Below are positions 2,040-41,830 of a stretch of DNA of 64,000 nucleotides, one piece after another. The notes below the pieces were generated by a model, which was given only the letters and a program-made list of their open reading frames with translations, ran no database searches and was not told where the DNA came from. Position 1 is the stretch's first letter. Each line of letters starts with the position of its first letter. A program made the position numbers and the translations under genes. The DNA is taken from the NCBI GenBank assembly GCA_965226795.1, contig CBDDDZ010000005.1, positions 800,001-864,000 of the forward strand, in the 5' to 3' direction. Origin of the DNA: Candidatus Latescibacterota bacterium. GTDB taxonomy: Bacteria; Latescibacterota; UBA2968; GCA-2709665.

Positions 2040-3839
2040 ATGGCGCTGGATGCATACTCAGTTTGTCTTGCCATTGCATGCGCGTTTCTCCTCTTCGCTG
2101 CCGGGTGGTTTTTATGCGCGAGGCTCAAAGCCCGCAAGATTCAGGAAATTGAACACCACACCGAGCGTCGGATTTCAAAAATGGTTGAGAAGGCGGGCCG
2201 GGAGCGCAGAGCCACATTTCTCGAAGAGAAGAACAAGTGGTACGACGCCAAGACGACGTTCGAGCGCGAACTGGATGGCAAGAAGCGCGAAATGGAACGG
2301 CGGGATGAGGACCTCAACGAAAAAGAGAACGGCATACAGGAACAGCACGGAAACCTCAAACTGCGAAACAAGGAGCTGAATCGCTCGGAGCGGGACGTAC
2401 GGCAGCGGGCGGTACGTCTGGATCAGAATCAGCAGGAACTCGAACAGGTGCTGGTTGAGCAACGCGCCCAATTGGAACACATATCGGGCATGAATGTGGA
2501 TCGCGCCCGGGAAATGCTTCTGGAGACTATCGAGACCGATCTCCGGCATACGGCAACCGCGATGGGTATGGAGATCATCGATCAGGCCAGGGAGCGGTCC
2601 GAGCGGGAGTCGAAAAAGATCATTGCGCAGGCGATTGAACGATGTTCAACGGATCAGACCGTGCAATCGTCAATTTCGGTCGTGGCACTGCCCGACGACG
2701 ATATCAAGGGTAGGATAGTTGGTAAGGAGGGGCGGAACATTATCTCCTTCGAGGCTGCGACCGGTGTGAAGGTGATCGTTAACGATACGCCGGAAGCCGT
2801 TGTACTCTCCAGCTTCGATCCGGTAAAGCGGGATGTGGCCAGGCTGGCAATGGAGCAATTGGTCAAGGAGGGACGAATCAATCCCAGCCGGGTGGAAGAG
2901 GTTGTGGCCGATTGTGAGAATCGTATCGAGACCCTCATCGAAGAGGAGGGGCGGCGCGCGGTCAAAGAAGTGGGCATCGACAACATGCACCAGGAACTGG
3001 TAACGATGTTGGGACGCCTCAAGTATCGAACCAGTTACGGGCAAAGCGTGTTGGGGCATTCCAAAGAAGTTGCATTCCTGGCAGGCGCAATGGCTGCGGA
3101 ACTGCGAATGGACGAGATGTTGGCGCGGCGGGCCGGATTGTTGCACGACATCGGTAAGGCGGTAGATCAGGAACAGGAAGGAACGCATACGGACATCGGC
3201 GTGGCGATGGTGCGCCAACATGGCGAAGGGCCCGAGGTGGGGAATGCTATTCTTTACCATCATGGAGACGCCGAAGCCAGTTCTCCAATATCCTTCCTGG
3301 TAAAGGCTGCGGACGCCATTTCGTCCTCCCGGCCGGGGGCCCGCAGGGATGACGCGGAAGGGTATGTTCGAAGGGTGCGCGATCTGGAGGATATTGCGCG
3401 GGGCTTTAATGGCGTACGCGACGCGTATGCCATTAATGCCGGCAGGGAAATCCGGGTGATGGTGAACGCGGGCCGGGTCGACGACGAACACGCCAAGAGT
3501 CTGTCATTCGAAATTGCACAGCGCATCCGGGAGGGAATGACCTATCCCGGCGAGATTCAGGTTACGATAATAAGACAGACGGTCGCCACCCAGTGGGCGG
3601 GCCGTTCCAATAAACGGCGCAAGGGCAGATCCAGAAACAGGAGAGGAGAACGCCGATATGAAAAAGGTCGGTCACGAAATGACGCTGACCGAAAAAATGT
3701 ACCTTCCGGCAATCACAAAGGGTCTGTCTCTGACCTTCAGGCACCTGCTCGGCAAGAAGATCACGATGCAGTATCCGGAAGAAACCTGGACAAAGCCCAG
3801 CGGATACCGAGGGCTGCACAAACTAACGAAGGACGATAG
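2040..3839 (+). CDS. rny: Ribonuclease Y with a basic C-terminal extension overlapping nuoI
   Basis: N-terminal TM helix, coiled coil, KH (KGRIVGKEGRNI), HD (AGLLHDIGK), C-terminal YPGEIQVTIIR. Confidence 0.95.
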   Translation: MALDAYSVCLAIACAFLLFAAGWFLCARLKARKIQEIEHHTERRISKMVEKAGRERRATFLEEKNKWYDAKTTFERELDGKKREMERRDEDLNEKENGIQEQHGNLKLRNKELNRSERDVRQRAVRLDQNQQELEQVLVEQRAQLEHISGMNVDRAREMLLETIETDLRHTATAMGMEIIDQARERSERESKKIIAQAIERCSTDQTVQSSISVVALPDDDIKGRIVGKEGRNIISFEAATGVKVIVNDTPEAVVLSSFDPVKRDVARLAMEQLVKEGRINPSRVEEVVADCENRIETLIEEEGRRAVKEVGIDNMHQELVTMLGRLKYRTSYGQSVLGHSKEVAFLAGAMAAELRMDEMLARRAGLLHDIGKAVDQEQEGTHTDIGVAMVRQHGEGPEVGNAILYHHGDAEASSPISFLVKAADAISSSRPGARRDDAEGYVRRVRDLEDIARGFNGVRDAYAINAGREIRVMVNAGRVDDEHAKSLSFEIAQRIREGMTYPGEIQVTIIRQTVATQWAGRSNKRRKGRSRNRRGERRYEKGRSRNDADRKNVPSGNHKGSVSDLQAPARQEDHDAVSGRNLDKAQRIPRAAQTNEGR

Positions 3840-4155
3840 GGGTCGCCCGAAATGCGTCGCATGCTACATGTGCGCCACGGCCTGTCCGGCGGAATGCATC
3901 GCCATCGAGGCCGAGGAAGCGCCGTGGGAGGATCGGGAGAAACATCCCAAGCGGTTTGACATCGATATGCTGCGGTGTATTTTCTGCGGCATGTGTGTCG
4001 AGGCCTGTCCCGAAGACGCGATCGTAATGACGGAGCGGACCGAACTGGCAGCGGAAAGCCGCGCGGAACTGATCTATTCCAAAGAGCAACTGCTGGCCGT
4101 GGAAGACCGGGTGACGCTTACGCCGCCTCGAAGGCCACTTGAAAATACCCGATGA
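3658..4155 (+). CDS. nuoI: NADH-quinone oxidoreductase subunit I-like 2x[4Fe-4S] protein (orphan)
   Basis: TMQYPEE, YRGLH, CVACYMCATACP and CIFCGMCVEACP; AGGAG RBS upstream. Confidence 0.88.
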   Translation: MKKVGHEMTLTEKMYLPAITKGLSLTFRHLLGKKITMQYPEETWTKPSGYRGLHKLTKDDRGRPKCVACYMCATACPAECIAIEAEEAPWEDREKHPKRFDIDMLRCIFCGMCVEACPEDAIVMTERTELAAESRAELIYSKEQLLAVEDRVTLTPPRRPLENTR

Positions 4156-28084: not shown

Positions 28085-28747
28085 ATGAAATTCGTCCTTT
28101 TTTTCTTGTTCCTATACCTCGGTACCTCCCCCGTTTTTGCACAGGAATCGGACGCGGATTCCACGCGGAGTGAACGGCCGACTTTTTCGATGACGCCTAC
28201 GTGAGTAGGCTGACCCGGCGAAGGCGCACCACTCCGTGGGAGTGGCATCCATACGAAATATACACTTTCGGGGCGGTACGTAGATACCTCTATGGACCGA
28301 CCGCAGTGGCGGTTCACGGCTAATTACCGGCTGCATCATCGCCTCCAGGTCGGGGTTGAGCTGAATCCGAAAGCAAAGGAGGCAGGACCTCTTGTAACCC
28401 TGTTTTTGTTTACCGAGACCGAGACGCGGCCTGCGCTCTTCTTGGGCACGAGTTCGGATCGAATCGGTTCGCCGTCGGGCGAGCAGTCCTACTTCGCGAC
28501 CATAAGTAAATATATACCTCGGTTGCGCATTTCCTTTTACGGCAGTTTGAATTATTCGGAATGGGACGGGAAGTTCAATGTTCCCTTTGGCGCGGGGGTC
28601 GAATTGGGCAAAGGCTTTTCATTTCGACCGATGTACGACGGCGACCGGGGGCACGTGATGCTGAATTATTTCGCGGCGCAATACGGTGTCAGTTTGATGT
28701 ACGTGTGGCTCGAAACCATGGGTATTTCGTTTTCTCTCGGGTTTTAG
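28085..28747 (+). CDS. Putative UxxU selenoprotein, exported small outer-membrane beta-barrel-like (220 aa)
   Basis: GGAG RBS; signal peptide MKFVLFFLFLYLGTSPVFA-Q; in-frame TGA at 28202 and 28211 (T-U-V-G-U-P); frame continues into ORF 28292..28747 with amphipathic strands ending in ...ISFSLGF. Confidence 0.75.
28229..28245 (+). promoter_or_regulatory. SECIS-like hairpin
   Basis: CCACTCC-GTG-GGAGTGG; G-first loop 22 and 31 nt after the two TGAs. Confidence 0.6.
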
Positions 28748-28759
28748 TGTGGAGGTTCA

Positions 28760-29443
28760 ATGCGATTTCGCTATCTCTTATTTCTGATTGTTTTGGCCAG
28801 TTCGGCTTCGCTTATGGCCGAAGCTCAGATTCCCGATAAGGCACTCTGTAGTGTCTGTGCATTGAAGGGCGGCGAGACGGAGTTGGAAAAGGTCAAGGCC
28901 CATTCTGAATATGAAGGCAAGGCGTACTATTTCTGTTCTGAAAACTGCAAAAAGGAATTCGACGCAGATCCCGTGGCTTATTTGCCACCGGTTTTCCCAC
29001 GGCCTGCACCAGCCATCGTCGTTGAAACGCTGGAGGGAGGGGACAGGGCGTTGGCGGAATCGAAAGGCAAAGTCGTACTCGTGGATTTCTGGGCGACGTG
29101 GTGCAATCCCTGTCTTGAGACAATGCCCCGGTTGCAGAAACTCTACAGCGCTTATTCCGGCAGGGGTTTTGACATCTGGGGTGTGTCAATAGATGAGGAC
29201 AGAGATCGGGTTCAAAAGATCAGAAAGATGGTGGGCAAACTGGGCATTTCCTATCCCGTCTTTGTCGATGCGAAACAGACGCCTGCCTGGTATCAGTTCA
29301 AGGTGAAAGCGATTCCGGCCATGTATCTTCTCGATAGAGAGAGTCGGATCGTGGCGCAGTGGTCGGGAAAGATAGACTACGATGAAGTGGAGAAGGAAGT
29401 CTTGAGACTTCTTGAAAACGGGGTCGATGTCGAAGGGCCATGA
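28760..29443 (+). CDS. Exported YHS-domain + TlpA-like redoxin fusion
   Basis: Signal peptide; LCSVC...EYEGKAYYFCSENCKKEFDADPVAY (YHS); GKVVLVDFWATWCNPC...VKAIP (TlpA). Confidence 0.88.
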   Translation: MRFRYLLFLIVLASSASLMAEAQIPDKALCSVCALKGGETELEKVKAHSEYEGKAYYFCSENCKKEFDADPVAYLPPVFPRPAPAIVVETLEGGDRALAESKGKVVLVDFWATWCNPCLETMPRLQKLYSAYSGRGFDIWGVSIDEDRDRVQKIRKMVGKLGISYPVFVDAKQTPAWYQFKVKAIPAMYLLDRESRIVAQWSGKIDYDEVEKEVLRLLENGVDVEGP

Positions 29444-35399: not shown

Positions 35400-36284
35400 A
35401 TGGCGGAACTGGTATATGATGCCGGCACCGATACGTACCAATTCCAGACGGAAGCGATGACCGGTGAAATTCGTACGTCGGGAGACTATCACGGGGTGTG
35501 GACACTAACCGACAGGATCACTGGCAGGCAGGTGATCCATCCAAAATATTCGGCATTGAACCTCTTTCGGTTGTTCGCGGTTCACCAGGGTCTGGATCAA
35601 CCGCGCCTGATGGACCGGACGGTCGAAGCCCGCGACAACGCCGTTGAGGTGCACTGGGCGGCTACGGATACGCACCAGGGCGCTTTGACCGCCCGTTACG
35701 AGGTGTGCGAGCCGAATCACGTCGACCTGACGGTAACGGTGAGGTGCGAAGGGACCTATGCAGGATATGAGCTCTTCCTCTCCAACTATTTCGATAAGAC
35801 AATGCGGCCTCACATCTATCTCCACGGGAGCCGGTACGGCCGGGCAAGCGTGGACCCCGAACGGGTCGTTCCCATGGTGAACGATGTCTTTCGAGGAACC
35901 GTCATCGTATTTCCGCGGGACCCGCATGCCGCGCGGCGCTGCGTAGACGGGCGGTGGAATCGAAGCGAGCGCAACTCCCCCACCGTGCAGATGTGTCCGG
36001 TGCGGTACTATGGGCATCCGTTTTCCTTCCTGACGGACCCCGGGAATCGCCTGGGTATCGTGTTGATGTCCACGGCAGAGGACTGCTATGCCATCAGTAC
36101 GCGTTACCACGTGGCCGACGAAGCCGATCGCATGACGGATTACAGCGCGTTTGATTTTTCTCTCTTCGGCGACGATCTGGTGCCCGGCAGCCGACGCACG
36201 GTACGCATGCGGCTTGCTTTGACGGAGGTCGATGAGGAAATGTCCCAGCCCCTGGCTCATTATCGTGCGTTTGCTGGCGACTAA
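35400..36284 (+). CDS. Hypothetical protein (beta-rich)
   Basis: GGGGAG RBS before ATG 35400; operonic position. The upstream part of ORF 34509 is a shadow. Confidence 0.6.
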   Translation: MAELVYDAGTDTYQFQTEAMTGEIRTSGDYHGVWTLTDRITGRQVIHPKYSALNLFRLFAVHQGLDQPRLMDRTVEARDNAVEVHWAATDTHQGALTARYEVCEPNHVDLTVTVRCEGTYAGYELFLSNYFDKTMRPHIYLHGSRYGRASVDPERVVPMVNDVFRGTVIVFPRDPHAARRCVDGRWNRSERNSPTVQMCPVRYYGHPFSFLTDPGNRLGIVLMSTAEDCYAISTRYHVADEADRMTDYSAFDFSLFGDDLVPGSRRTVRMRLALTEVDEEMSQPLAHYRAFAGD

Positions 36285-36530
36285 CGGCGGATCCGTCGAT
36301 AGGCTCGAGTCGTACCTCCGCGGATTGCATCCCTTAAAACGGGCCAGGCGTACCGGGCAGGCGCGGGGCATCGCCGCCCGTTGAGTTTGTCCTTCGAAAT
36401 GGTCGAAATCATAGCCCGATTCAATTTTAGGGTTGAATCGGCGCCTTATTGTACCTATTTTTGTTACGTATCGATCCTGGCTCGGATAGGCGCCGTTTCT
36501 GCTCAACTTGGAGAGGTCGTACAAATACGG

Positions 36531-37727
36531 ATGAAGAGAATCCTCGAACATGTGTGGGCGCGGTACCTGCTGACGTTCGGCCTGCTCCTCTCTGTGGCTG
36601 ACTGCGGTAAGACACCGCCCACCGTGGACGATGATCTGTACGAAGAGTACCCGGGGTTGCCCTACGGGATCATGATCACCCTCGCCGGCACCGGAGATGC
36701 AGGCAGGAATGCCGCGGGATCGGGTCCTCTGGATACACATCTGTATTTTCCCCAGGATATGACTGTCGGTCCCGACGGGCGGACGTACATTCTGGATTGG
36801 AACAACAATCGCGTTCTAGAGATCGACAACGGAGTCGTCCGTCCTCTCGTCGGCAACGGCGAACCGGGCGATGCGCCTGCGGGTCCGGCGCTGCAGGCGG
36901 GCATCGACCACCCGACCCATATTTCGTTCGATCCTCAGGGACGGCTGATCCTTTCGGCCTGGCAGAATTCCAGGATCCTGAGGTATGATTTTACCACAGG
37001 CCGCGTCGAACCCATTGCCGGCCGGGGCGAACGCGGTTTCGGGGGCAACGGCGGCCCCGCTCGCCAGGCCTCGTTAAATCTCCCGAGTTCCACTGTCTTC
37101 GACGAATCCGGTCGGATGTATATCTCGGATCAGGGAAACCTTCGCATTCGTATGGTGGATCTGAACGGTGTGATCTCCACCGTTGCGGGAACCGGGAGGG
37201 AGGGATTTGCCGGGGACGGCGGTCCTGCGATCCTGGCGGACCTCTATGCGCCGACGGGAGACGCGGCGCAGCCGGCCGGCCGGATCGCCATGGATAGCCG
37301 GGGTAACCTTTATATCGCAGATACGTTCAACCATCGCATCCGAATGGTGGATACCACGGGCAGGATCAGCACGGTGGCCGGCGGCGGCAGTATCGGCCCG
37401 ACTGCCGGAACGTATTCCGGAGATGGCGTACCGGCGACCGAGGCCAACCTATCGCGCCCCAGCGACGTGGTCGTCGATGCGGAAGGAAACCTGTTTATCG
37501 CCGATACCGGTAACCATTGCATCCGCAAGGTGGATACCAGCGGTATTATTACCACCCTGGCCGGCCGGTGTGGCGAGCCGGGTTTCAAGGGCGACAGTGA
37601 CCATCCCCGGTGGGGGAAACTCAGGAGTCCATACGGGGTCGCGCTCGATCAGGACGAGAATCTGTACATCGCCGATACGTTCAACCATCGGATTCGCGTA
37701 GTGTACAAGGAAATCGTCGAAAGGTGA
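36531..37727 (+). CDS. NHL-repeat lipoprotein
   Basis: Signal peptide ending in Cys (SVADC); repeats of GNLYIADTFNHRIR and GFAGDGGPA. Confidence 0.88.
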   Translation: MKRILEHVWARYLLTFGLLLSVADCGKTPPTVDDDLYEEYPGLPYGIMITLAGTGDAGRNAAGSGPLDTHLYFPQDMTVGPDGRTYILDWNNNRVLEIDNGVVRPLVGNGEPGDAPAGPALQAGIDHPTHISFDPQGRLILSAWQNSRILRYDFTTGRVEPIAGRGERGFGGNGGPARQASLNLPSSTVFDESGRMYISDQGNLRIRMVDLNGVISTVAGTGREGFAGDGGPAILADLYAPTGDAAQPAGRIAMDSRGNLYIADTFNHRIRMVDTTGRISTVAGGGSIGPTAGTYSGDGVPATEANLSRPSDVVVDAEGNLFIADTGNHCIRKVDTSGIITTLAGRCGEPGFKGDSDHPRWGKLRSPYGVALDQDENLYIADTFNHRIRVVYKEIVER

Positions 37728-37792
37728 TCTTTCAATCGGTCAGCGGGCGACACCGCTTTCGGGTATGGATGTCGTTCCTTGAGGAAGTGATT

Positions 37793-38296
37793 ATGGGCAG
37801 GACGAATCTGGGTTGGATTACCGGTGCTGTGCTGGGGGCGGGCCTTATCTTCTGTCTCCCTGATGTCGGGGCCGCAAAGGAAGAGAATTCCAATCCGCTG
37901 CCTCGGGTGCAGCTTGTGACGTTAGAGGGAGATACGCTGAGTCTGACCGAAGTCTGCGAAGGCAAGACATCCTTCATTTATCTGTGGGCAACCTGGTGCA
38001 AAACCTGCAAGAAGGATATGAAGCATGTCTTCAAGTTGAGGGAAAAATTCGGAGAGAAGGTGCAGGTCTTCGGCATCGCGTGGAAGAACAGCGCCGAGGA
38101 GATTCAGACCTACTTCGCAGGCAGGAAGGAATCTCTGCACAGTTATATCGATACGGATGGAAGGGTGTTCGAGGCCTTCGAGACCCGGCTCACACCCACG
38201 GTGGTGATCGTAGACGGCCGGGGGGAGGTCCTTTTTTTCGGATACGCTTCCTTTGGAAAATTCAGAAAACTGCTGGACCAGGCATTGAAGGGTTAG
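37793..38296 (+). CDS. TlpA family disulfide reductase (exported)
   Basis: Signal peptide, YLWATWCKTC, TPTVVIVD. Confidence 0.88.
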   Translation: MGRTNLGWITGAVLGAGLIFCLPDVGAAKEENSNPLPRVQLVTLEGDTLSLTEVCEGKTSFIYLWATWCKTCKKDMKHVFKLREKFGEKVQVFGIAWKNSAEEIQTYFAGRKESLHSYIDTDGRVFEAFETRLTPTVVIVDGRGEVLFFGYASFGKFRKLLDQALKG

Positions 38297-38338
38297 TCGT
38301 CGATTGAACGCTAACCAAACCTTGGAGGAGCGTGGACG

Positions 38339-39313
38339 ATGAGATGGTTCTTGCTGGTTTTTGCGTTGGTCCTGTTCACCCCACTGTTTCCAGGAAACAG
38401 ATCTGTTCTGGCGCAACCCGGCGTAAGTTGACGTCGTCCCGTACTCCCGGGCGGGAGAATGCTCCAGGGCAGTCTGATTACCCAGGATCTTTTCGTTGTG
38501 AGCGTGAATTACGAGTATGAGTTTCTGGGCGATGCGATGTTCGGTACAGGGCCGATCCCCAACGTCAACCAGGAAGTCACCAGCATTTCAACGGTGTCGG
38601 TGTTCGCAAGTTACGGGGTCAAGGAATGGTTCGGCGCCGCCGTAGTTCTCCCGTTTCGTTCCATAACCAACGACAAATTTCTTCTACCAGGTCAGTACGA
38701 CAACCAGTATCAGGGCGGCGAGTATGTTCGGCATGCCGCCGGTCTCGGCGACGTTGTTCTGATGTTGAACTTTGCTCCCCCTCTGCCGAAAGCATTGCCC
38801 GGGCTGCTTTTTTCGGCAGGTGTCAAGCTCGCTAACGGGTCGACCCACGCGGTCGATGAGTACGGCCAGCGGTTCGCCGACTTGCTGCAGGTGGGTTCCG
38901 GCAGCGTGGACCCCATTTTCTCCGTAAGTCTGTCGCACGCCTTCAATAACCTGTTTTTCTCCGGTATGCTGTTCACACGCATTATTTCCCGCGAGAATGT
39001 ATACGGTTACAAATACGGGAACGAGTTTCAGGGCATCTTTTCGATGGAATATACGCATGGGGGCATGTTTTTTGCGGGTCTCAGCCTGAACCATGTTTAC
39101 ACGGCTCGCGATTATTTCCAATATGGAAAAATCGCCCGAAAACGCGGGGGCGCCTGGCTCTATGTCGCGCCGAAGCTGGGCGTACGGACAATGGAGAACC
39201 TGAGCCTGGAAGCGAGGTTGCCGCTTCCCGTTTTCCAGAATGTTAACGAAAGCCAGCTAACCTCCGATTATCAGCTCCATGTGGGCGCCACGTATCATTT
39301 TTTGGCTCGATAA
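38339..39313 (+). CDS. Putative selenocysteine-containing outer-membrane beta-barrel ('transporter'/MetA-pathway-like), 324 aa
   Basis: GGAGGAG RBS 8 nt before ATG; signal peptide MRWFLLVFALVLFTPLFPGNRSVLA-Q; in-frame TGA at 38429 (QPGVS-U-RRP); continues into ORF 38459 with GLGDVVL, QVGSGSVD and a C-terminal ATYHF strand. Confidence 0.72.
38440..38461 (+). promoter_or_regulatory. SECIS-like hairpin
   Basis: CGTa-CTCCC-GGGC-GGGAG-aATG; G-first loop starts 17 nt after the TGA. Confidence 0.55.
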
Positions 39314-39364
39314 GCGGCTGGAAAGGGCCGCATCGCGTGGTTGCGGTAAAGTGCGGGGGCTGAC

Positions 39365-40096
39365 GTGGCACCGAAAGAAACCGAAAAGATGTGGGCTGAA
39401 CTGGCGCCGTTCTACGACGTAATGTATCAGTGGAAGGACTATCGTGCCGAGGCGGAACGGATCCATAAATTGATTCAGGCGCATCGCATGTCGTCCGGAA
39501 ACACCCTTCTGGATGTCGCGTGCGGGACCGGGGGACACACCGAGTTTTTGCGAGAATACTTCGATGTAACCGGGATCGATCTGAATCGGGCGATGTTGAA
39601 GGTGGCTCGAAAGAAGATCCCCGGAGTCCCGTTACTTTGTCGGGATATGGCTTCTTTCGGCCTGAAGCGTCGGTTTGACGCGGTTGTCTGCCTGTTCAGT
39701 TCGATCGCCTACGTCAGGACCTACCGGAACCTGAAGCGGGCCATCGCTTGTTTTGGTAGACATTTGAAACCGGGTGGCATTCTGGTCATTGAGCCCTTTT
39801 TCAGGACAGAGACATTTCTTCCAGGAACGATCCAGGCAGGCACCCTTGAAGCCGAAGGCGTCAAGATCTCCAGGCACACCGTGAGCAGGCGTCGCGGAAA
39901 TCTGGCCGTTCTCGACTTCCATTTTCTTCTTTCAACCATGAAGGGCGTACAGTACTTTCGGGACACCCACGAATTGGCGCTCTTCGACCGGGAGCGATTC
40001 CTCGAAATTCTCTCGGACGCCGGACTTCGCACGTGGTATTACGAGGACGGATTGATGCGAGAACGAGGACTCTACGTGTCGTTGAAAGCGCTTTGA
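39365..40096 (+). CDS. Class I SAM-dependent methyltransferase
   Basis: LLDVACGTG, FDAVVCLFSSIAY, HLKPGG. Confidence 0.88.
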   Translation: MAPKETEKMWAELAPFYDVMYQWKDYRAEAERIHKLIQAHRMSSGNTLLDVACGTGGHTEFLREYFDVTGIDLNRAMLKVARKKIPGVPLLCRDMASFGLKRRFDAVVCLFSSIAYVRTYRNLKRAIACFGRHLKPGGILVIEPFFRTETFLPGTIQAGTLEAEGVKISRHTVSRRRGNLAVLDFHFLLSTMKGVQYFRDTHELALFDRERFLEILSDAGLRTWYYEDGLMRERGLYVSLKAL

Positions 40097-40465
40097 ACCA
40101 CCGGCTCTGGCGTCGGCCGACCCGGATCGCCTATGAATGTCGTTTGATACGTCCACTTTAAGACCCCATGTTAGTACGCAAAACGCCGGTCGGATGGCTT
40201 CGAACCTGAGGTCAACGCCTATGAGGCACGATCGGTCAGGTCTGACGATGCACCGTCCGGCCGGATGCACACCCCGCCCCGGATGCGGCCATGCCGTCCG
40301 CGTTCGCACCACACCGTTTGCTCCTTTCACATGACGCGCCCTTACCGTATTTTCTATCAAATTCCCATCCGTAAAGACAACAAAACGCTTCAGAGCGCCT
40401 CGTAATCGGAGAATCGCCGGGGCGAGGCCGCCGGCCCCCTGACGCGAAGCCGGGAGTGAAATCTT

Positions 40466-41830
40466 ATGGAATCGCGTAGAGACAATGGCAATGGCAGGAC
40501 CGAGCGCAACCCTCAGGTTTTGGGCAAGAATTTCATGTTTCCGCCCCACGTGATCGACGATATCCATATCAAGGCGAATCTGGGTCGGTATCGCATGCGC
40601 GGGATGGCGCTCTTCAAGCAGATTCCATCATGGGACGACCTCACGTTTCTGCCGGGCACGCTCACCCGGTTCGTGATCGAGGGATACCGTGAAAAATGCG
40701 AAACCAGGACGGTGCTGGGGCCTATGGCCAGGCGGCCGCTGGTACTGGATATTCCCGTCTACATTACGGGGATGAGCTTCGGCGCGTTGTCCTACGAGGC
40801 GAAGGTGGCGCTGGCGAGAGGGGCCACGATGGCGGGCACGGCGACCTGTTCCGGAGAAGGCGGAATGCTGCCCGACGAGCGCCGGTATTCGGAGAAGTGG
40901 CTGTACCAGTGCATTCAGTCCCGATACGGGTTCAATCCACACCATATGCGTCTTGCCGACGGCGTGGAGTTTTTTATCGGGCAGGGATGCAAGGTGGGGC
41001 TTGGCGGCCACCTGATGGGCCAGAAGGTGACCGACCAGGTGGCCGAGATGCGTTCGTTGCCGGCGGGGATCGATCAGCGTTCTCCCGCAAGGCACCCGGA
41101 CTGGCTGGGCCCCGATGATCTGGCTTTAAAGATTGAGGAGATCCGTGAGGCGACCAACTGGCAGATTCCCATTCAGTTGAAACTTGGCGCTGCGCGGGTG
41201 TACGACGACGTGCGGATGGCGGCAAAGACGGGGCCCGACAGTATATATATGGACGGGATGGAGGGGTCGACGGGAGCGGGGCCCCATCTGGCCACCGAGG
41301 AGACGGGCGTACCGGGCATCGCGGCCATCAGGCAGGCCAGAAAGGCACTGGACGACGTGGGTAAGACCGGGAAGATTACGCTCGTCTATGCCGGCGGGAT
41401 TCGCAACGGAGCCGACGTGGCCAAGGCGCTGGCGCTCGGAGCCGACGCGGTGGCGATCGGTACGGCGGCGATGGTGGCGCTGAATTGCAACAAGGACATC
41501 CCCGAAGCGGATTACGAAGGCACGGTTGGCGTACCGGCGGGATACTGCTATCACTGCCATACCGGACTGTGTCCCGTGGGCGTAGCCACCCAGGATCCGG
41601 TGCTGCGCAGCCGCCTGGACCCGGACGACGCGGCCGAACGGGTTTATAACTTCCTGCATACCCTGGCCATCGAATGCCAGATGTTCGCCAGGGCTTGCGG
41701 CAAGACCAATGTACATTCCCTGGAGCCGGAGGATCTTGCCGCGCTCACAATGGAGGCCTCCGCTATGGCGGAGGTGCCGTTGGCAGGCACCCGATATACG
41801 GTCGGGCATCCCGAGATGAACAGGTATTGA
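40466..41830 (+). CDS. mgsC: FMN-binding glutamate synthase family, N-methylglutamate synthase subunit C (GlxD)-like
   Basis: EGYREKCET, MSFGALS, GLGGHLMGQKV, DQRSPARHPDWLGPDDL, CYHCHTGLCPVGVATQDP; sits in a gmaS/tdm cluster. Confidence 0.78.
   Translation: MESRRDNGNGRTERNPQVLGKNFMFPPHVIDDIHIKANLGRYRMRGMALFKQIPSWDDLTFLPGTLTRFVIEGYREKCETRTVLGPMARRPLVLDIPVYITGMSFGALSYEAKVALARGATMAGTATCSGEGGMLPDERRYSEKWLYQCIQSRYGFNPHHMRLADGVEFFIGQGCKVGLGGHLMGQKVTDQVAEMRSLPAGIDQRSPARHPDWLGPDDLALKIEEIREATNWQIPIQLKLGAARVYDDVRMAAKTGPDSIYMDGMEGSTGAGPHLATEETGVPGIAAIRQARKALDDVGKTGKITLVYAGGIRNGADVAKALALGADAVAIGTAAMVALNCNKDIPEADYEGTVGVPAGYCYHCHTGLCPVGVATQDPVLRSRLDPDDAAERVYNFLHTLAIECQMFARACGKTNVHSLEPEDLAALTMEASAMAEVPLAGTRYTVGHPEMNRY

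Follow-up and report, generated by a model that had tools for sequence, protein, structure and literature searches.

We found that a gene at 38339..39313 (+) of the window, which is the whole stretch of 64,000 nucleotides analysed from a contig of a Candidatus Latescibacterota bacterium, is almost certainly translated through an in-frame UGA as selenocysteine (Sec) by means of SelB and a SECIS element. The product would be a 324-aa precursor of an exported 12-stranded outer-membrane barrel of the COG4313/PF13557 type, and its N-terminal plug would contain the only selenol or thiol of the protein. The barrel is a real, uncatalogued variant built of known parts.

The ATG at 38339 is preceded, with a spacing of 8 nt, by the strong ribosome-binding site GGAGGAG (38324..38330, +), and an SD-like purine-rich stretch precedes the starts of most homologues. 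A signal peptide of 25 aa (38339..38413, +), which ends in VLA before a Gln, was predicted by eye and from hydropathy; an N-terminus with a hydrophobic core and an AxA-like end is found at 33 distinct TGA loci. When TGA was translated as U, the frame gave 324 aa with a single TGA at codon 31 (38429..38431, +), a TAA at 39311-39313, and no Cys. Homologue comparison assigns this TGA to Sec31, the sixth residue of the mature protein, in the context QPGVS-U-RRPV. The open reading frame under translation table 11 (38459-39313, 284 aa) contains the GLGD and QVGSGSVD motifs and lacks the signal peptide. The ribosome-binding site, the signal peptide followed by one in-frame TGA, the G-loop hairpin 17 nt downstream of it, the continuation of the frame into a barrel that has no signal peptide of its own, and the lack of Cys in the remainder of the protein had all been described in the original prediction, and all are present in the sequence. 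As the TGA is unchanged in the contigs from four of four sequencing runs, it is not an assembly error; sponge metagenomes are among the runs that contain the sequence. Contigs from RNA libraries span the TGA in three studies and are silent on strand, level, and co-transcription. A scan for promoters and terminators gave counts near chance, with a single weak terminator-like site at 39279-39293, and Rfam gave no match at E values up to 1 in the region 36000-40500.

The genome encodes SelA, SelB, and SelD above curated cut-offs as well as tRNA-Sec, so that the Sec genes whose absence had been named as evidence against Sec are in place; selD carries a TGA of its own. Ordinary open reading frames of the window also stop at UGA, and the anticodon of tRNA-Trp is CCA. 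The gene was matched in 18 genomes out of 41 related ones. These gave 35 matches, of which 33 have one in-frame TGA; the remaining pair consists of a weak hit and a fragment of the C-terminus. Each of the 15 genomes of the genus has two copies, about 55% identical, with the TGA in both. In the genome studied here, the paralogue (L021; G000:C5:1404237-1405202, -) is 55% identical and has the same TGA and hairpin, with a propeller lipoprotein gene about 10 nt downstream. Some 3-4 kb upstream of this paralogue on the same contig lies a reverse-transcriptase-like sequence spread across several frames, presumably of the group II intron type, beside a ribonucleotide-reductase-like gene.

The register of the TGA was the same at the 20 of 20 loci checked, which read Q[PG]GVS-TGA-RRPVLPGG; the alignment of homologue N-termini that the original prediction called for thus gave TGA throughout. 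A metagenome scan, in which the codon was left open to avoid selection for TGA, covered at least 119 loci; among the matches listed, TGA was found in 6 of the 6 true homologues and once in the other 113 loci. Searching 168 genomes of the phylum with a profile brought in two distant forms, VA-U-RRPTLP (G048, 29% identity) and DVCAG-U-SNPNLP (G131, 18% identity), and the TGA is retained in sequences down to 18-41% identity. TAA, TAG, and TGG were absent from the site in the DNA-checked homologues of the clade of the gene. Across the 33 distinct loci, which come mostly from one genus and are therefore not independent, the Arg after the TGA is encoded by all six Arg codons, and the Gly-Val-Ser before it shows synonymous variation only. 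As the codons on both sides vary synonymously, coding constraint acts on the residues that flank the TGA. The gene selA was found in 18 of 19 genomes with the TGA form; the exception is G018 (80% complete), where no hit to selA or selB exceeded the cut-off, and two genomes without selA and selB hits carry a Cys form, TCSC. This co-occurrence is weak evidence because selA is present in 131 of the 168 genomes of the phylum. From these comparisons, we infer with high confidence that Sec is incorporated at codon 31.

The bacterial SECIS consensus is a hairpin just downstream of the UGA, with a G starting the apical loop. The hairpin at 38444..38457 (+), CTCCC-GGGC-GGGAG, lies over Leu-Pro-Gly-Gly codons; its stem has 5 bp (CTCCC/GGGAG), and its loop GGGC starts 17 nt past the TGA. 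As a single sequence it does not exceed chance (z 0.15-0.70 versus shuffles), the minimum-energy structure differs from it in three of three folds, and synonymous recoding matches the stem about 13% of the time. Its agreement with the consensus, a loop started by G just downstream of the TGA, was seen by covariation at synonymous sites and by codon bias. At all 33 loci, CTC or CTT encodes the Leu of the stem, whereas these two codons make up 315 of the 997 Leu codons in the rest of the same genes; the stem codon switches jointly with the Gly codon of the opposite arm. A change of C-G to U-A on both sides was seen in 5 of 26 sequences and was matched by 2 of 500 shuffles, a test that is inflated by the kinship of the sequences; slid registers of the hairpin all pair worse. 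The case for the hairpin lies in its conservation only, and not in single-sequence folding. With the recoding of fdhA and selD in the same genome, the gene shares a UGA and, after it, a hairpin whose G-rich loop lies 18-20 nt further on. The loop of selD is GGTC, which is also found in the barrel homologue L063. The stems of fdhA and selD are longer, whereas that of the barrel gene has only 5 bp.

A genome-wide filter for a ribosome-binding site, an open reading frame, a TGA, a hairpin, and a long open reading frame left six candidates, which included fdhA, the barrel gene, and its paralogue. This filter also gave a TGA with a hairpin at G000:C2:631474 (+; VD-U-CGASSC), which we take to be UGSC-like, at G000:C2:254739 (+; GCV-U-NNG), and at G000:C5:446002 (+; EPV-U-RRAV).

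That the codon is not Sec, and that it instead arose by nonsense mutation, truly stops translation (which would resume at Met41), or is read as Trp, is very improbable in our estimation, and this reading appears to be largely refuted already. The original prediction had named Trp, Arg, or Gly in close homologues as the mark of a simple nonsense mutation; what was found is Trp in three database proteins (P0052, P0115, and P0190). These are likely gene calls made under code 4: the nearest DNA-checked relatives of P0052 (L127, 58% identical) and P0190 (L203, 80%) have TGA, and P0115 matches P0026, which is itself called from just after the site. An ATG is available for re-initiation at 38459, where gene callers place the start; however, this Met41 is missing from the register of the paralogues and from the distant forms, and the codons from the TGA to Met41 vary synonymously. 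The hairpin is weak as a single sequence, yet it covaries. A nonsense mutation is also difficult to reconcile with the TGA being kept by both paralogues of 15 genomes and by sequences of 18-41% identity, and with the lack of TAA, TAG, and TGG in the DNA-checked homologues of the clade.

The predicted structural model (pLDDT 88) has 12 strands, as counted from the DSSP string. Its best structural match was Pput2725 (PDB 4RL8), with Z 26.4, an rmsd of 2.3, and 255 aligned residues (model residues 37-321 on chain residues 1-268), followed by FapF (PDB 5O65) with Z 23.8. A sequence search of the PDB gave nothing significant, and Pfam and NCBIfam gave no family for the read-through protein. PF13557 was hit in 6 of 24 aligned homologues, not including the barrel itself; the Sec homologue L190 scores 37.9 against a cut-off of 22. 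COG4313 channels are regarded as pores that act passively, with a plug at the N-terminus as the gate. According to the available text of PMC4493636, in which we found no mention of Sec, Pput2725 is a barrel of 12 strands, the lumen of which is filled from the periplasmic side by residues 1-14. Residues 26-50 of our protein (38414..38488, +) form the putative plug: model residues 37-50 align with the plug of Pput2725, Sec31 lies 6 residues earlier, and the alignments to NalP and FadL begin at residues 30-32. These aligned ranges suggest that Sec31 would sit deeper in the lumen.

The protein thus shares with the COG4313/PF13557 channels (Pput2725, 4RL8; TcpY; SphA) the 12-stranded barrel, a mature length of about 300 aa, and an N-terminus aligned with the lumen plug. 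It differs from Pput2725 in having only 10% identity and a plug that is about 11 residues longer and contains Sec. The neighbours of the gene encode a thioredoxin and a propeller and are not aromatic-degradation genes, and uptake of hydrophobic molecules, the COG4313 role, is not suggested by the gene neighbourhood. The amyloid-secretion pore FapF shares the barrel fold and an N-terminal plug; however, the identity is 14%, the alignment starts at FapF residue 99, which leaves the long FapF N-terminus without a counterpart, and the barrel locus has no amyloid operon.

The original prediction took Sec to replace a Cys that often follows the signal peptide in this barrel family, and this held in part. 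At least one Cys occurs among the first mature residues in 72 of 94 full-length homologues, with two or more in 69, and one distant clade contains an exact Cys/Sec pair, namely, ACAGC-SNPNLP (4 proteins) and DVCAG-U-SNPNLP (L203). No Cys form was found in the clade of the gene itself, and the register relative to the common QxCC type depends on the alignment, with U placed opposite the first Cys or CC placed 2-3 columns earlier. The full-length non-Sec forms of the branch, P0024 and P0072, have Ser and Glu at the Sec position and no Cys at the tip; thus, a chalcogen is not indispensable to the barrel. As all known selenoproteins are said to have Cys homologues in the available text of PMC12013277, the missing Cys form counts against Sec. 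A tree of the barrel part, made by a quick method without bootstrap from 67 chosen rows and giving no order of events, placed the gene in a branch of 25 rows (support 89), the members of which have Sec, are N-truncated, or have a Cys-free tip.

Directly upstream of the barrel gene lies a gene for an exported TlpA/ResA-like thioredoxin with the motif WCKTC (37793..38296, +), the proposed partner of the barrel, and before it a gene for an NHL-repeat beta-propeller, a probable lipoprotein with a conserved Cys (36531..37727, +), which is the first of a conserved three-gene unit. The order of NHL propeller, TlpA (WCxxC), and barrel is kept throughout the genus (15 genomes) and also in G021 and G018, which makes 17 genomes. 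The methyltransferase gene downstream (39365-40096) was considered as a further member and rejected: it follows the barrel in the genus and is replaced in G021. At the paralogue and at three distant loci (L059, L063, and L127), a lactonase-like propeller lipoprotein gene lies downstream, and there is no thioredoxin beside the barrel. The VA-U-RRP barrel of L190 (G048; 2517-3497, +) has as its downstream neighbour a lipoprotein in which carboxypeptidase-regulatory-like repeats occur together with a stretch resembling planctomycete cytochrome c. In the case of L203 (G131:C185; 2259-3248, -), the His-rich CxxU barrel stands directly behind a MerP/CopZ-like HMA-thioredoxin fusion gene (3251-3994, -). 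Elsewhere in the window, 28085-28747 (+) encodes an exported protein whose reading frame contains TGA twice (T-U-V-G-U-P, a UxxU motif), with a hairpin past the second and no hit in Pfam or NCBIfam; a YHS-TlpA gene (28760-29443) follows, and here, too, a putative Sec protein lies beside TlpA.

A barrel with a C-terminal thioredoxin was found in 11 of 12 long homologues scanned and in three more proteins from another search (P0044, P0046, P0047, P0049, P0053, P0054, P0067, P0086, P0099, P0145, P0146, and P0206-P0208), all called without a signal peptide. No such fusion turned up in the phylum (168 genomes), nor did an additional search of proteins yield one at full length. It is our guess that these fusion proteins may also be hidden selenoproteins. 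The C-terminus of an outer-membrane barrel is periplasmic, and thus the fused thioredoxin would face the side on which the plug enters.

A redox-coupled gate or covalent catch with a selenol reset by thioredoxin is the most likely function, which we hold with somewhat less than even confidence. The selenolate, beside two conserved arginines, would react with a thiol-reactive cargo (a disulfide, a persulfide, or a thiol-bound species) on its way in, or with an oxidant, after which the plug would shift towards the periplasm. TlpA, the thioredoxin encoded alongside and supplied by a DsbD-type protein (a DsbD domain is encoded in the genome), would resolve the Se-S bond and reset the plug. In a bolder form, which we regard as unlikely, the clade would be Cys-less selenoproteins in which the lone selenol of the mobile plug ferries reducing power, or a cargo bound to it covalently, through the outer membrane, with a periplasmic thioredoxin to reset it, as an extension of the DsbD-TlpA thiol relay into the outer membrane.

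Rather unlikely is the role that the original prediction put forward beside a redox gate: Sec31 would be a soft-metal ligand (Cu+, Hg2+, or Ag+) in the plug of a channel for metal uptake or exit, and TlpA would only keep Sec reduced. This role fits the distant clades better than that of the gene. A tip with two Cys is found in the majority of distant homologues, near-invariant His columns number six in the CxxC/CxxU clade and three in the SCGxxxC clade, and L203 adjoins the HMA-thioredoxin gene, whereas in 16 sequences of the gene's own clade no His, Cys, or Met column reaches 70%, Arg, Lys, Asp, Asn, and Tyr being conserved instead, and the three-gene unit has no recognised metal-handling gene. 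For this clade, the redox gate appears to be better supported than the metal ligand by the thioredoxin neighbour and fusions. Doubtful, and behind the ligand in our ranking, is a FapF-like pore that would export the beta-propeller lipoprotein encoded next to it or dock it at the surface, with Sec making a transient or structural Se-S link to it. Both paralogues adjoin propeller lipoproteins, which differ in family (an upstream NHL one in 17 genomes, a downstream lactonase-like one beside the paralogue), the NHL protein has its conserved Cys, and the secretion pore FapF ranks second structurally; however, this argument draws entirely on gene neighbourhood, and L190 and L203 have different neighbours. 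Improbable, to our mind, is that the Sec codon serves mainly as a selenium-dependent expression switch, which would give an export-competent barrel only when Sec-tRNA is plentiful and would make the chemistry of the residue minor. The TGA does precede the entire barrel, and in the closest forms that lack Sec the residue is Ser or Glu, not Cys, but the position matches a Cys in the CxxC/CxxU clade, and the thioredoxin neighbours and fusions favour chemistry.

None of the models of NCBIfam 20.0 matches the protein or three Sec homologues. In the available text of PMC13188914, no row for PF13557/COG4313 was seen among the 119 families of Table 1, which includes two outer-membrane barrels, the GSU2204/MtrB-PioB type (NF041027) and the FCYXU TonB-dependent receptor (NF049945). 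Both are likewise outer-membrane barrels with one predicted Sec, and they belong to barrel families different from that of our protein. A Sec-bearing COG4313/PF13557 family was not found in the available parts of PMC9312934, PMC13326102, PMC12013277, and PMC5877670, and our search of the literature open without subscription gave no paper on Sec in these barrels.

The locus thus adds a clade with a lone Sec and neither Cys nor His, with two paralogues per genome, and thioredoxin fusions, and the bacterial selenoproteome would gain a family of outer-membrane channels. It also corrects a systematic annotation error: the signal peptide is missing from 35 of 37 database homologues, in most cases because the called start lies past the UGA. 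If the clade is truly Cys-free, it is the kind of family that methods based on Cys/TGA pairs overlook. With a putative selenol in the plug and a thioredoxin as neighbour or fusion partner, chemically driven gating or a thiol relay across the outer membrane becomes testable by a single substitution.
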